From Nanobdellati archaeon (GTDB taxonomy: Archaea; EX4484-52; GLR71), in contig JAHYJO010000007.1 in assembly GCA_019429125.1 (NCBI GenBank), positions 1 through 58,755 on the forward strand: a DNA stretch of 58,755 nt, read 5' to 3'. Under the pieces are notes generated by a model. The model was not told the origin of the DNA and searched no databases. It saw only the letters and a list, made by a program, of their open reading frames with translations. The translations under genes were made by a program, and so were the position numbers. How positions within the stretch are numbered: position 1 is the first letter of the stretch; every line of letters begins with the position of its first letter. Below, piece after piece: positions 13,156-36,372 of the stretch.

Positions 13156-14253
13156 TCAATCTAAGAACTCTTTTCTTGCAATCTTTCCAGGCAGGTACTC
13201 TTTTGCGACAAACTCAAGACTCTTTGAAGCCAGTGCTTGCTGTTCTATCCTTGTACCTTTGTTGAGCATGCTTTTTAGTTCTTTTCGCCAGTGCAACTTT
13301 TGGAACCATTCGTAGTTTAAAAGCTGGTTGACACGTTTCTTGTCGACATCTTTTAATTGTTCTGTTACTTTCTCTAGGCCGAAAGTGTCAATGTCGGCCA
13401 TTGTCATGCCAATGAATCTGCATTCGGGTGTTGCAAGGCGTTTTGATTCGTGTGCCAAGTTCATGGAACCCGTCTTTACAACTGAATAAATGTAGTAACC
13501 CCAGGGGTCACCGTCTGTGAATACGTATACAGGAAGTTTTAGGCGCTCGTTTAAAAGCTTTATCAGACGCCTTGCACCTCTTGCAGCCTGACCACCAAGA
13601 CCTATTAAGATTGCGTTGTTTTCAATATGATATTTTTCTTCTACAAGACGGTCAACCATAGCTTTTGTCTCAACCACCAAGACATATTTAGCTTTACATT
13701 CTATGAATTTGTAGTCGTCAACAATTGAGGGTATGGCAAGACCTGATTTTCCTAATTTTGAACAGTCAATCCTGTCGCCTGTGTCCTCAATCACAATTTG
13801 TCCAAAAAGTATTCCGCTGCTGTCTGCTTTTAGGTGAAGCTCTTCCCTCAATGAATCTGTCATTGTTTCAAGGTCTTCAATCAACGGGTCGGATTCTTCC
13901 TGACCTTCAAAAGTGTTCTCTTTTGTGCCAGGGATGTTGTGCTTGAGCTCATAATAAAGTTCTCTTATGCTTGCAGTCTTTCCTTTATCTATAAGTTCTT
14001 TGCATTTGGATGCAATAATCATGGTCTGCATGAATTTTCTTGTGTGGGCAAAATTGAGGAAATTTCTTTCAGACATACTATTTCCTAGATACAGGAGACC
14101 TTTGTCTTTATCATAATGGACATTTGAGGATGCACGGACAGGAAGAGCTACCGATGGCGCATTACCTGCAAATATATCTGCGACTACTTTTTTGCCTAGG
14201 TTCTTTATCTTTTCTGCAACTATCGGGTCACTTTCAAATTTCATAATAATCAC
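13156..14253 (-). CDS. top6A: DNA topoisomerase VI subunit A (likely start ATG 14244)
   Basis: RELYY (catalytic Tyr), VLVVET, GQAARGARR, TDGDPWG and EQQAL. Confidence 0.96.
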   Translation of the reverse strand: MIIMKFESDPIVAEKIKNLGKKVVADIFAGNAPSVALPVRASSNVHYDKDKGLLYLGNSMSERNFLNFAHTRKFMQTMIIASKCKELIDKGKTASIRELYYELKHNIPGTKENTFEGQEESDPLIEDLETMTDSLREELHLKADSSGILFGQIVIEDTGDRIDCSKLGKSGLAIPSIVDDYKFIECKAKYVLVVETKAMVDRLVEEKYHIENNAILIGLGGQAARGARRLIKLLNERLKLPVYVFTDGDPWGYYIYSVVKTGSMNLAHESKRLATPECRFIGMTMADIDTFGLEKVTEQLKDVDKKRVNQLLNYEWFQKLHWRKELKSMLNKGTRIEQQALASKSLEFVAKEYLPGKIARKEFLD

Positions 14254-19948: not shown

Positions 19949-20070
19949 AAAATAAATATAGGTTCTAAATTATAAAAATATTGCTGAATTATTTAATAAA
20001 ATAAAATCAATAAAAATTAGATAGAGTCAAAACAATGAAAAATAAAAGATAATAAAATCACTAATACACT

Positions 20071-20280
20071 AAATCATATATGTCTAAATCATATATAGCT
20101 AAAACATATATAGCTAAAACATATATGGTTAAAACATATATAGCTAAAACATATATGGTTAAAACATATATGGATAAATCATATATGGATAAATCATATA
20201 TGGATAAATCATATATGGATAAATCATATATGGATAAATCATATATGGATAAATCATATATGGATAAATCATATATATAC
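20071..20280. repeat. 14 x 15-bp tandem array (consensus AAA(T/A)CATATATGGAT)
   Basis: Contiguous units with no spacers; variants are clustered along the array. Confidence 0.93.
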
Positions 20281-20305: not shown

Positions 20306-20656
20306 TCAAGATTCCAGTTCTTTAAGATAACCTTTGGTCTGCATCAATGCTGCTTGGTGTCTTGTAAAAGTATAGATTACATCTCCTTTCTCGTCACTTT
20401 CAACTTCCCATGGTCTAACAATACAGAAAGTTCCTTCATATGCAGATACTGATCTTCGTAATTTACCTGGCACTCGGCAAACCCTTATTTTTTTGTCTGA
20501 ACATATAACTCTTGTCTTTCCAAAACCTAGTCTCTGGTCAACAACACCTAAAAGTTCACCATTTCTTGGCAGTCTAAGTCTTATAGGTTGAGTAGGATCA
20601 AATTCTGGTTTTTTCCCTTTAGAGGTTGGTTTTTTCTTTTTGAAGTTTGTTGTTAT
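20306..20656 (-). CDS. eif1a: Translation initiation factor aIF-1A (non-canonical ATA start; missed by the ORF track)
   Basis: IRLRLPRNGELLGVVDQRLGFGKTRVICSDKKIRVCRVPGKLRR...IVRPWE...KGDVIYTFT...KGYL. It lies upstream of rio1, as in the conserved archaeal cluster. Confidence 0.9.
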   Translation of the reverse strand: MTTNFKKKKPTSKGKKPEFDPTQPIRLRLPRNGELLGVVDQRLGFGKTRVICSDKKIRVCRVPGKLRRSVSAYEGTFCIVRPWEVESDEKGDVIYTFTRHQAALMQTKGYLKELES

Positions 20657-20680
20657 AATATCATCTCCAATTAATTATAT

Positions 20681-21382
20681 TTAGTTACATCTTAATAAAT
20701 ATGTTGTTCTTGTTAATTCTTTACCGTCTTTGATGCTGTAATGTGACGAAGTCTCTTTGTGATCTTTAATATCAAACTTAAAGATTATTTCGCGAGATAG
20801 TTTTTTTGCAAATTTTGTTGAACTCATGATTATGTCTATCCGTCCCGATTTTTTCTCGATGTTGGTTATAAATATTGAACTGTTCTCTTTTTCGGTTTCA
20901 GCTATTCGTTTTTCTATGTAAGCCTCGACTTCAAGCACAGTATCATTGTTGCCTCTGAGCTGGATTGTTGATTCGAAGTAACCACCTGATTTTCTTGAAC
21001 AGATTGGACAGCATTGAGGTATTATTATTGCAGTTACATCTGTTTCTGATTCTTTATCACCATGATTGTATACTGTTACTTTAACAGGTATTGATATCTT
21101 GCGCTCTAAAGAATAACCCGATGGCACTTCTATCTCTACTTTCTGTTTTTTTGATAATTTTGAAGATCTAAGTATTGCAGAATGCAAGACATCGTTAAGG
21201 GTTGGATATTTTATCCATGTATTTTTTATCATTACACTTCTGCACTCACAGAGCATTATCTTTAGGGATACAGGTATTTTCGAGGTTGGCTTAACTGTCT
21301 CTTTACCTGCGCAAGTAGGACATACTTTACCAAATAAAGTTTCGGTCTCAGAACCGCAGTTAGGACAAAATTTTCTCATCAT
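20681..21382 (-). CDS. Nmd3-family protein
   Basis: FCPNCG, CPTC and CPICSRKSGGYFESTIQLR. Confidence 0.88.
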   Translation of the reverse strand: MMRKFCPNCGSETETLFGKVCPTCAGKETVKPTSKIPVSLKIMLCECRSVMIKNTWIKYPTLNDVLHSAILRSSKLSKKQKVEIEVPSGYSLERKISIPVKVTVYNHGDKESETDVTAIIIPQCCPICSRKSGGYFESTIQLRGNNDTVLEVEAYIEKRIAETEKENSSIFITNIEKKSGRIDIIMSSTKFAKKLSREIIFKFDIKDHKETSSHYSIKDGKELTRTTYLLRCN

Positions 21383-21440: not shown

Positions 21441-21734
21441 CTATACTTTGAAAATCATTATATAAGGCGTTTTTGATATAAATTGTATATGTTCTTTGGT
21501 TATGATATTTTTCTTTTCAAGTCCTGATATTATGTTATCGCCTATAATCATGGCTGATGTGCATGTTGAAATGGCGGAGATTATGGTAGTCATATCTGCT
21601 TTGTCACCATCAAAAAAATAATTTGATATGTCAAGGACTTTGTCATGTTCCTCAAAACGTTTTCCCAAAATGTCAGAATCACATACAGCAACGATAGTTC
21701 CTGAGTCGCTATTGTGTGTTTTTAACATAAACAT
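21441..21734 (-). CDS. DUF424-family protein
   Basis: IVAVCDSDILGKRF...FFDG; usual neighbour of aIF-2beta. Confidence 0.85.
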   Translation of the reverse strand: MFMLKTHNSDSGTIVAVCDSDILGKRFEEHDKVLDISNYFFDGDKADMTTIISAISTCTSAMIIGDNIISGLEKKNIITKEHIQFISKTPYIMIFKV

Positions 21735-22268: not shown

Positions 22269-22943
22269 TTATGTGAATATTTGCTGGAGCTCTGATAGGT
22301 CATCAATTATATGATTACAATATTGAACAATATCTATTCCTTTGTTGTAGGTAGTTCTTAACAGTATAAAACTCATGCCAGCATCCTTTGCTGCAAGAAA
22401 GTCATTTAAACTGTCACACACCACTATACATTTATTTGGGATTGTACCTATTGCATCTGAGGCTTTCATAAAGGTTTCAGGATTGGGTTTTGGACTTGAG
22501 ATGTCATCAGATGTTATTATTGCGTCAAGGAGGTCTTGTATTCCTTTAGGAACCACATTGTCTGTACCTGTTCTTGACGCACCTGTGAAAATTGCGATAT
22601 TGTAACCTTTTTTCTTTAGTTTTGAGATTCAAGCGGTTGAATCTTTTGGGAAGCAGTCTTTCTTGTTTTTTAGGATTTCTGAAAACTTTTTGTTGAACTC
22701 GTCTTTTAGGTACTCTTTTTTTGAAGGGTCATACGCTCCTTCTTTTTTCAGGAAATGTGTATATATTACTTCGGCGGGTTTGCCTCTAAAGCGCATGATA
22801 TCTTTGGGGGTTAGATTTATTGAGACACCAAATAATTATAATATGTTATTTATTACTTTTATGTATGTTGATATCGAATCTAATAAGGTCCCATCAAGAT
22901 CAAATATTATAATCTTTATGTTTTTTTTATTGAAAAGTTGCAT
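22269..22943 (-). pseudogene. HAD-family phosphatase pseudogene
   Basis: MQLFNKKNIKIIIFDLDGTLLDS...; two in-frame stops (TAA, TGA) precede the KPNPE and VVCDS motifs. Confidence 0.82.
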
Positions 22944-35340: not shown

Positions 35341-36012
35341 ATGAAATATTTTTTAATCAGATTGTCAGCATTTATTAGTTTAATTATTATTGTATCGCCT
35401 GCGAGCGCATGGTGGAATGACACACATGGCGCACTTGCTGAAAAGGTGTGCAAGGATTTTAACTGCACATGCACAGATGATATTATAGACTGGTCAAACA
35501 TACCCGATGAGTTATTCAAAGATACCTCAAATCACCATGACTATGACACAAACATTGAGTGCCCAGAAAGCTCGGAGTGGACGTGTCCTGTTAAAAATGA
35601 TTTCAAGGCAAGCAGAAAAATTCAAGAATTTCTTGATTCTGCAAAACAAAAAGAAGGTTGTTCAGCCTGGAAAGATATAGCAATTGCATCACATTATTTC
35701 TTTGACACTAAAGTATTCTGGCACAATGTGCAAGATGAAGACTATTTTGAATGCCACAAGGAGTTTGAACAGCAAGTCAATGACTTAATCTCAGATAAAA
35801 ATATGGATTGGAAGGTGTGTACGTGCGGTATCTGCGTCAGTTATGGAGAATTAGAACCGTGGGTCATCGAATTTGAAGATAAGATAGATTTTATCGATAA
35901 AGTCTATGAAACACCACTCATTGTCGAAAAAGAGAATAATATAACGTTTATTGAAAATATTATAGAACATCTTAAATACATTTTTCATACAATATTAAAA
36001 ATAATATTATAA
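35341..36012 (+). CDS. Secreted zinc-dependent phospholipase C / S1-P1 nuclease-like protein
   Basis: Signal peptide ending ASA-W, then W...TH, PD, HH, SHYFFD, WH and H.EFE Zn-ligand pattern; Cys-rich. Confidence 0.72.
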   Translation: MKYFLIRLSAFISLIIIVSPASAWWNDTHGALAEKVCKDFNCTCTDDIIDWSNIPDELFKDTSNHHDYDTNIECPESSEWTCPVKNDFKASRKIQEFLDSAKQKEGCSAWKDIAIASHYFFDTKVFWHNVQDEDYFECHKEFEQQVNDLISDKNMDWKVCTCGICVSYGELEPWVIEFEDKIDFIDKVYETPLIVEKENNITFIENIIEHLKYIFHTILKIIL

Positions 36013-36309
36013 CTGCTTAAATATGTCTTGTAGTTTCTCATCAATCTCAGCCTTATTAATGTTCATACCCACATTAAGAGACTCTTTTACAAGGCGCAAT
36101 AGATGTATCATATCTGTGAATTTTTTATCAAAAGAGGCCATATTCTGATTCATGTCTTCAAAGCGAGCAATATAACTATCATATTTGTCCTCTTTTGTTT
36201 TTTGAATCTGGTCATGCTCTATATCCAGCTGAAGCTTATGATTCATCAATTCAACTATAACTTTGTTTTTTGATATGAGCAAATGCAGGTCAGACATGAT
36301 TTTACCCAT
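36007..36309 (-). CDS. Hypothetical coiled-coil protein, possibly extending upstream to ATA at about 36360
   Basis: ORF downstream of porB; the frame is open back to a GGTGAT SD. Confidence 0.6.
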   Translation of the reverse strand: MGKIMSDLHLLISKNKVIVELMNHKLQLDIEHDQIQKTKEDKYDSYIARFEDMNQNMASFDKKFTDMIHLLRLVKESLNVGMNINKAEIDEKLQDIFKQL

Positions 36310-36372
36310 ATCTGGGGTTTCGGTTGCATCTGAACTATTGTCTTTTAGGACTACTATTATAAATCACCATAT

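Follow-up and report, generated by a model that had tools for sequence, protein, structure and literature searches.

The gene for translation initiation factor aIF-1A in the window (the whole stretch of DNA analysed here, 58,755 nt) carries no in-frame ATG, GTG or TTG at its 5' end. We put a probability of roughly 0.8 on the reading that its ancestral ATG was replaced by a near-cognate codon, and that near-cognate initiation anchored by the Shine-Dalgarno (SD) sequence extends across the genus. On this reading, the 30S subunit would be placed by the 8-of-9 SD GGAGATGAT, and the ordinary Met-initiator tRNA (CAU) would start at AUA (20656) despite a third-base mismatch. AUA, AUU and AUC would then be regular start codons in the genus, 3-5 nt past a strong SD. 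ATA, ATT or ATC (collectively, ATH) would start roughly one in five GGTGAT-led genes of the genome bin that carries the window (G000; 1.16 Mb, 32 contigs, 93% complete), with orthologues drifting between ATG and ATH. From the sequence we infer initiation at these ATH codons with insertion of Met, and a lower output from the weak codon. The features on which the analysis rests are collected in Table 1.

Table 1. Features of the aIF-1A start region and its neighbours, and the other candidate ATH-start genes of G000 with the starts of their orthologues
Feature	Position	Strand	Remarks
aIF-1A coding sequence	20306..20656	minus	116 codons from ATA, plus TGA stop 20308-20306
In-frame TAA closing the aIF-1A frame upstream	20675..20677	minus	read from the sequence
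Shine-Dalgarno GGAGATGAT	20660..20668	minus	8/9 bases match GGAGGTGAT; -9.9 kcal/mol; invariant in 8/8 species
ATA, likeliest aIF-1A start codon	20654..20656	minus	3 nt past the SD; near-cognate for a CAU initiator tRNA
In-frame ATT: spacer, or alternative/second start	20657..20659	minus	invariant in 8/8 species; 5 nt past the GGAG core
Out-of-frame ATG ATA TTA TAA	20653..20664	minus	ATG (20664-20662) inside the SD
GTG, earliest in-frame canonical codon	20471..20473	minus	rejected as aIF-1A start
NMD3-family gene, upstream of aIF-1A	20681..21382	minus	Pfam PF04981, E 1.3e-30
DUF424 gene, upstream of NMD3	21441..21734	minus	Pfam PF04242, E 8.1e-15
Candidate ATA-start gene (window 36357)	36007..36368	minus	GGTGAT (36368-36363)+5 nt+ATA (36357-36355); 116 codons; without Pfam family; orthologues ATA (G000), ATA (G003), ATC (G006), ATG (G007); sister genus G008 without match
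Metallophosphoesterase, candidate ATA start	C30:628		Metallophos; Pfam profile position 1 = residue 1; K-I-A-I-F-S-D-T-H; ATA, ATC, ATA, ATA in the genus; G008 ATG
HD hydrolase, candidate ATA start	C14:28389		HD + HD_assoc_2; ATA in 3 genomes, ATA ATG in G001; G008 ATG
Hexapeptide transferase, candidate ATT start	C23:8352		ATT in 5/5 genus copies; G008 weak match only, start not read
OB-fold protein, candidate ATT start	C13:44740		ATT in 4 genus genomes; G008 ATG
Candidate ATT-start gene	C16:94548		without Pfam family; ATT (G000), ATT (G003), ATG (G006); G008 ATG
Candidate ATT-start gene	C16:39012		signal-peptide-like N-terminus
Candidate ATT-start gene	C7:3081		N-terminal hydrophobic helix; GGGTGATC+taa+ATT

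The aIF-1A gene and its start region

The encoded protein belongs to the aIF-1A family. Its S1-like OB fold scores above the curated cut-offs of Pfam PF01176 (eIF-1a; E 9.8e-11, residues 33-95, 41.6 bits against a cut-off of 30.2) and NCBIfam NF003084 (IF-1A subfamily; 99.8 bits, cut-off 91), and it shows full-length similarity to solved archaeal aIF1A, namely the M. jannaschii and Pyrococcus proteins (chains 1jt8, 4mno and 5jb3; E 5e-23 to 8e-23; residues 16/21 to 111/114). Its score falls under the cut-offs of the equivalog models TIGR00523 and NF003086. The gene is present once in G000 and is also the sole copy in each genome of the genus. Within the genus, pairwise pS ranges from 0.27 to 0.86 and dN/dS from 0.01 to 0.15, with synonymous sites near saturation between subclades; as judged from these alignments, the gene is intact and has been kept by purifying selection. 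It probably forms one operon with the NMD3-family gene; in all eight species, aIF-1A follows the conserved 3' end of the latter (...ttattaagRtgt).

On the minus strand, the frame reads TAA(20677-75) TTA ATT GGA GAT GAT ATT(20659-57) ATA(20656-54) ACA ACA and stays open to the TGA at 20308-20306. The original prediction held that ATG, GTG and TTG are missing from the TAA to the ATA, and this is what we find; indeed, all three are absent in frame as far as residue 62, the first canonical codon being the GTG at 20473. Initiation at this GTG is rejected, as the 55-aa product would lack residues 1-61 and more than half of the OB fold. Residues 1-61 are conserved in the genus and align to solved aIF1A.

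The SD proposed 3 nt ahead of the ATA is present at 20668-20660 as GGAGATGAT, eight of whose nine bases match GGAGGTGAT, the complement of the 16S 3' end of G000 itself (...GGATCACCTCCT). The two sites that had been offered for comparison are also real and have 4 nt between SD and ATG (GGAGATGAT+4 nt+ATG at 1999; AGGTGAT+4 nt+ATG at 14244, minus strand); in all, GGAGATGAT leads to an ordinary ATG 4 nt on in two other G000 genes. The ATG inside the SD was said to be out of frame and to stop after three codons, as it does in the window (ATG ATA TTA TAA).

The spacing of ordinary genes bears on which of the two adjacent in-frame codons is likelier to initiate. Behind an SD of at least 7/9, canonical starts in G000 lie 3, 4, 5 and 6 nt past the GAT in 10, 7, 24 and 5 genes, respectively, and a spacing-0 canonical class accounts for 10 further genes. 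G000 also has a gene class of the form GGAG/GGTG-N-TGAT-ATG, where pairing is by GGAG or GGTG and N-TGAT serves as spacer. Because its 3-nt spacing fits the main canonical pattern, while ATT at 0 nt fits the smaller class only, ATA (20656) is favored as the probable start, leaving initiation at ATT (20659) as a tentative second choice. Both codons are near-cognate, and both may be used. The SD spacing is 3-5 nt in all eight other ATH-start candidates of G000. The ATT spacer of aIF-1A is fixed in 8/8 species, whereas the spacers of the other ATH genes vary. As a separate observation, an invariant ATT "spacer" has no explanation if ATA alone initiates, and spacing-0 ATG genes do exist.

Folding of the start region in the eight genus sequences revealed no stable or conserved RNA structure masking the start; in seven of the eight, the minimum free energy was no stabler than that of mononucleotide shuffles. 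Compensation of the weak codon by a stronger SD was considered and rejected: with the anti-SD of G000 applied to every genome, SD duplex energies in the genus (-9.9 to -10.1 kcal/mol) do not stand out from those of relatives with an ATG start (about -3 to -12.7).

Distribution of the aIF-1A start codon among relatives

All genomes compared are metagenome bins, and the eight genomes of the genus, one per species, were separately assembled. Aligning the start regions of these relatives, as had been suggested, showed them to be without ATG, in agreement across the eight independent assemblies. A 14-nt block, GGAGATGATATTAT, is identical in all eight species, while the sequence flanking it differs among them. 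The next base is A in seven and T in one, so that the start region reads GGAGATGATATT+ATA in 7/8 species and GGAGATGATATT+ATT in 1/8. An in-frame stop lies 2-7 codons ahead of the GGA in all eight, and seven have no canonical start codon of any kind ahead of aIF-1A. In the remaining one (G004/L008) there is an in-frame GTG five codons upstream, but inside the NMD3 3' end.

This start block exceeds what chance would leave, since its 14 nt are frozen while codons of the coding sequence vary. The longest invariant run within the aIF-1A coding sequence of the eight species is 8 nt, and only 10 of the 71 codon columns with an invariant amino acid are also invariant in nucleotides (Gly 0/8, Asp 0/5, Ile 0/3). 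Together, these two figures indicate that the block is conserved as RNA (SD plus start) and not as a translated G-D-D-I-I. The absence of ATG from eight species is by itself weak evidence for selection, because it is compatible with neutrality: with G at 11% of four-fold sites, the probability that 4-8 neutral lineages would all be without G is 0.39-0.63.

At the level of phylum, class and order, which comprise the same 42 genomes, 40 yielded an aIF-1A match, and their start regions were judged by eye with duplex energies as a guide. ATG is the start in 26 genomes of the rest of the phylum, and TTG in four (three of genus g12 and one of g4); one further start (G041) was left unclassified. In the eight genomes of this genus the start is ATA (seven) or ATT (one). 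The single genome of the sister genus (g2) reads TAA TTG GTG ATT TTA ATA TAT AAA AAA. Its GGTGAT+TTTA+ATA leads into I-Y-K-K, which lines up with M-Y-K-K (ATG TAT AAG AAA) of genus g8, and its start is probably ATA as well. The in-frame TTG and GTG of the sister genus fall inside the SD, and either is a less likely start; the TTG GTG ATT pattern likewise precedes a bona fide ATG at locus L095. In the third genus of the family, aIF-1A starts with ATG.

Wider scans gave canonical starts throughout. A metagenome scan returned 10 distant relatives (35-50% identity), all with a canonical start as judged by eye. A scan of genome contigs added 11 other DPANN loci, all canonical, to six of the genus relatives already described, for a total of 21/21 further DPANN loci with a canonical aIF-1A start. 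Given ATG in the rest of the phylum, the ATG-to-ATA change is, on the comparisons made here, derived and confined to one clade. Among the ATH cases described below, aIF-1A is by the same comparisons the oldest and most fixed, being found in 8/8 species and probably in the sister genus.

Candidate ATH starts elsewhere in the genome

We screened G000 for further ATH starts behind SDs at 5' ORF boundaries, using a set of 1139 ORFs drawn from our own codon-usage filter, with no gene caller; the screen covers SD-led genes only, and the ATH share derives from G000 alone. Among 131 records with an SD of at least 7/9 at a spacing of 3-6, the start position holds ATG in 55, GTG in 3, TTG in 1, ATT in 6 and ATA in 5. 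Of the 596 occurrences of the exact motif GGTGAT, 42 coincide with the 5' boundary of an ORF, and these 42 are followed by ATG (26), GTG (2), TTG (2), ATT (5), ATA (3) or another codon (4). ATH thus makes up 8 of 12 non-canonical cases versus 17% expected (binomial P = 2e-4). One ATT among the 42 is ambiguous, having an ATG directly after it, and P is 8e-4 without this case. A cruder screen on an energy threshold alone found no ATH enrichment; most of its matches lie 1-3 codons before a real ATG.

With aIF-1A included, there are nine ATH-start candidates in G000. Orthologues were checked in the 10 genomes of the family for C16:94548, C7:3081 and window 36357, and in five chosen genomes for the metallophosphoesterase, hexapeptide transferase, HD hydrolase and OB-fold genes. 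For six unrelated genes, the position set by the SD holds ATH in the orthologues, or ATG in some and ATH in others. The interchange occurs within the genus for two genes and between the genus and its sister genus for three more; in the sister genus, all four other orthologues examined start with ATG. Distant homologues of C7:3081 (about 30% identity) have ATG ahead of the same hydrophobic helix. Lineage-wide AUH usage is therefore indicated on two counts, several unrelated SD-led ATH genes and ATG/ATH interchange between orthologues.

Within genes, ATA aligns with ATC or ATT Ile codons of orthologues, for example in K-I-A-I-F, and 40% of the ATN codons in long G000 ORFs are ATA. Internal ATA thus remains Ile, which points to near-cognate initiation and not to a change of code.

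Alternative explanations, possible causes and consequences

The original prediction coupled the non-canonical start to an autoregulatory loop modeled on bacterial infC and eukaryotic eIF1. The start itself stands, while the loop finds no specific support, as 8 of the 42 GGTGAT boundaries carry ATA or ATT. In such a loop, abundant aIF-1A would tighten start-codon checking and AUA would be used less, in the manner of infC/IF3 and eIF1. Several points favor it: the non-AUG start of aIF-1A is the most conserved of all the cases (8/8 species and probably the sister genus), the 14 nt that run from its SD through the spacer into the start are fixed, in contrast to the variable spacers of other ATH genes, the only change seen at the start is ATA to ATT and never to ATG, and TTG starts the gene in four further genomes from two other genera. 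The factor also belongs to the start-selection complex, as described in a review (PMC7531240). On the other side, at least eight unrelated G000 genes share the codon class and their orthologues drift freely, aIF1, the recognised fidelity factor, starts with a plain ATG at all 29 readable of 30 loci, and the missing ATG is within neutral expectation (0.39-0.63). AUA may also not be weak, given that an AUA-started infA mRNA competed equally with its AUG version in an E. coli cell-free system described in PMC5499595. We therefore consider autoregulation unlikely. Since the same codon class starts at least eight unrelated genes, no special explanation is needed for aIF-1A, and a dedicated feedback loop is not needed to explain its codon. 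The case illustrates that feedback does not follow from a weak start on an initiation factor; the genome-wide background is what should be checked first.

The remaining alternatives are more remote. A sequencing or assembly error, or a decaying pseudogene, could be imagined in a 32-contig bin with several nonsense-interrupted genes, but the block is common to eight separately assembled species genomes, dN/dS is 0.01-0.15 and the gene is the sole aIF-1A copy in each genome, so that we give this reading almost no weight. Ribosomes might instead start at the out-of-frame ATG in the SD and then enter the aIF-1A frame, either through a -1 shift or by terminating and reinitiating at the overlapping AUAA. 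The TAA of ATG ATA TTA TAA does overlap the ATA by two bases, and the ATG is invariant, as it lies in the conserved block. However, this ATG is itself part of the SD and lacks a separate one, a slippery heptamer is missing, and in two other G000 genes GGAGATGAT is followed by an ordinary ATG 4 nt on. The three-codon ORF is present in only four of the eight species (L001-L004) and was accordingly judged not conserved; L005-L008 have a different base after ATTAT, which leaves the frame of the out-of-frame ATG open. Taken together, we regard this route as very improbable. Reassignment of ATA to Met, which would make the start cognate, would suit the fact that ATA, together with ATT, is the commonest ATH start in G000. 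It is contradicted by the abundance of ATA in long ORFs (40% of ATN codons) and its alignment with the Ile codons ATC and ATT, and by the use of ATT and ATC as starts as well, and it has next to no probability. SD-anchored near-cognate initiation remains the preferred reading.

What might have relaxed start selection in this lineage was sought in the initiation machinery. A change in the initiator tRNA (C25:17945-18021) was rejected as the cause: it has a CAU anticodon, A1:U72 and the standard GGGCUCAUAACCC stem-loop, its anticodon stem-loop is as in other families, and its D-stem differences are common to the sister genus. The GGGCUCAUAACCC stem-loop is identical in 23 of 26 aligned tRNA sequences, the three g12 genes having C33. 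Aragorn detected only 26 tRNAs (18 with -i). Changes in aIF1 were likewise set aside; besides its ATG start (29/29 readable loci of 30), it has two mild genus-specific substitutions, both in moderately conserved columns. According to PMC7897474, E. coli and H. volcanii initiate more often at non-AUG codons when KsgA/Dim1 is absent, but loss of KsgA/Dim1 is rejected here, as G000 encodes two family members (201 and 158 bits).

In aIF-1A itself, 8/8 genus species are changed at six columns (E40D, W71S, D76T/N, V78C, K96T and L105M), each with a conservation of 80% or more across the 41 other sequences compared. Residue 71 is W in 40 of the 41 others and S in the genus, a difference also visible against 1jt8 and 4mno. 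The sister genus has only the D76 column change in common and keeps the other five conserved residues. The Pfam score of aIF-1A is lowest in the genus, at 42-44 bits versus 50-75 in the rest of the phylum. The substitutions and the relaxed starts coincide in one lineage, which amounts to correlation only. If aIF-1A were the cause, the first step would have been its own ATG-to-ATA change, shared with the sister genus, whose four other orthologues keep ATG. The aIF-1A of the genus would then have lost the Trp at residue 71 (W to S) and a further five conserved residues. A change in the dose or shape of this A-site factor would have loosened third-base checking in the P site, and AT-biased mutation could then have spread AUA, AUU and AUC over about a fifth of strong-SD genes. 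We consider it doubtful that aIF-1A itself gave rise to the relaxed lineage in this way.

In infC- and eIF1-type cases the weak start stands out from the rest of the genome, which is what makes the loop specific. The aIF-1A gene resembles infC in encoding an initiation factor and in having an SD followed by a non-canonical AUH start that is conserved (8/8 species). Unlike infC, it encodes an IF1/eIF1A homologue and not an IF3/aIF1-type fidelity factor, and its codon class is not exceptional in G000, where at least nine candidate genes carry it and the specificity of the infC case is lacking. By comparison, infC is auto-regulated by IF3, and an AUU start is attributed to only two E. coli genes in PMC5499595. 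The autoregulation of eIF1 operates via a suboptimal start context (PMC6237735). The likeness to eIF1, in the logic of the original prediction, is that of an initiation factor with a suboptimal start of its own, but eIF1 keeps AUG and a scanning context, whereas aIF-1A is SD-anchored and without an in-frame AUG; the eIF1 homologue of G000, aIF1, starts with ATG.

There are other parallels, among them mitochondrial AUH/f5C34 and yeast Sui-. As in animal mitochondria and some Mollicutes, AUA, AUU and AUC would serve here as starts in many genes of an AT-rich, reduced genome. Unlike those systems, the genus belongs to the archaeal DPANN group and has eukaryote-type factors, internal ATA stays Ile, all G000 ATH cases lie behind a strong SD, and the phenomenon is seen in one genus only. 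Canonical SD-led initiation in archaea is exemplified by P. abyssi aEF1A, GGAGGUGAU+UUAA+AUG (PMC6237735). The aIF-1A gene has the same SD sequence and the 3-5 nt spacing, and departs from the canonical case in a P-site codon that is AUA/AUU and not AUG/GUG/UUG. The start codons listed for archaea in a review (PMC7531240) are AUG, GUG and UUG only, and neither a non-canonical start of aIF-1A nor AUH starts in an archaeal lineage came up in our full-text literature search.

These starts bear on both annotation and mechanism. Archaea share the start-selection core (aIF1, aIF1A, aIF2 and tRNAi) with eukaryotes. A natural lineage in which AUA, AUU and AUC are tolerated after an SD would offer a comparative handle on how the third base of the start codon is enforced. 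Gene callers restricted to ATG, GTG and TTG will miss aIF-1A or truncate it to the 55-aa stub from the GTG at 20473, and the same loss would affect the metallophosphoesterase, the HD hydrolase and other genes in these genomes. With such genes missed, DPANN archaea would look more reduced than they are.

Long "leader" ORFs were also considered as extra non-canonical starts. Of 23 compared with Pfam, 15 matched, and at least nine of these have a match that begins in mid-profile; they were rejected as gene fragments. The ORF at C22:6719-7336, which is truncated and unique to G000, was rejected too. G000 holds several nonsense-interrupted genes, and recoding of TGA or another stop was rejected, since the 21 in-frame-stop junctions divide among TAA (13), TGA (4) and TAG (4), indicating nonsense pseudogenes. 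Another long leader ORF in G000 lies at C23:6073-7458.

Candidate ATA and ATT starts in other genes

The window contains a further candidate ATA-start gene, which matched no Pfam family; in its orthologues the equivalent codon is ATA, ATC or ATG. Seven additional genes in the source genome may likewise begin with ATA or ATT, in each case preceded by a strong Shine-Dalgarno sequence. Four have recognizable products, while L115, L091 and L084 together comprise two predicted exported proteins and one of no assigned kind.

Coordinates of features in the window and in loci or contigs (C) of the source genome
Feature	Location	Strand	Detail
Candidate ATA-start gene	window 36007-36368	minus	116 codons; ATA 5 nt after GGTGAT
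Metallophosphoesterase, candidate ATA/ATT start	L111:1-1245 (C30)
Hexapeptide transferase, candidate ATA/ATT start	L112:1-582 (C23)
HD hydrolase, candidate ATA/ATT start	L113:1-1188 (C14)
OB-fold protein, candidate ATA/ATT start	L114:1-285 (C13)
Candidate ATA/ATT start	L115:1-900 (C16)
Candidate ATA/ATT start	L091:1-438 (C16)
Candidate ATA/ATT start	L084:1-1755 (C7)
KsgA/Dim1-family (RrnaAD) gene L141	C21:53171-53818	minus
KsgA/Dim1-family (RrnaAD) gene L142	C21:51430-52050	plus
aIF-1A codon 71	window 20444-20446
Tandem repeat, 15 bp	window 20070-20276		unit TAAATCATATATGGA; 13.8 copies; 94% matches
Gene with single in-frame stop	window 22269-22628	minus
Genes with single in-frame stops	L070, L077, L079 (C2, C12, C14)

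Initiator tRNA and KsgA/Dim1 genes

The initiator tRNA genes of g12, another genus of the phylum (L189, L190, L191), read GGGCCCATAACCC and have C33 in place of the U33 seen in the remaining 23 genes of the alignment. In g12, aIF-1A starts with TTG in all three genomes. The source genome encodes two KsgA/Dim1-family proteins (L141 and L142, scoring 201 and 158 bits) on opposite strands, with ~1 kb between them.

The aIF-1A protein and its surroundings

Codon 71 of aIF-1A encodes Ser throughout the genus and Trp in 40 of the 41 other compared sequences. Five more substitutions are found in the genus (E40D, D76T/N, V78C, K96T and L105M), which also has the lowest Pfam score for aIF-1A within the phylum. 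Past the aIF-1A stop, the tandem repeat begins after 30 nt. Immediately 5' of aIF-1A, genus g7 (L061, L065, L066, L067) has a tRNA-like 3' end (...GGTTCRAATCCGGGAGACTTCA), whereas the family of the source genome has the NMD3-family gene there.

Genes interrupted by in-frame stops

Several genes are broken by single in-frame stops, among them a HAD hydrolase by TGA after ...KDSTA, a 2-thiouracil desulfurase by TGA after MKLVNTCLAGINCK, and a C5 DNA methylase by TAA (GGFPC-TAA-PFS). These look like nonsense pseudogenes rather than cases of recoding. The 21 in-frame-stop junctions comprise 13 TAA, four TGA and four TAG.
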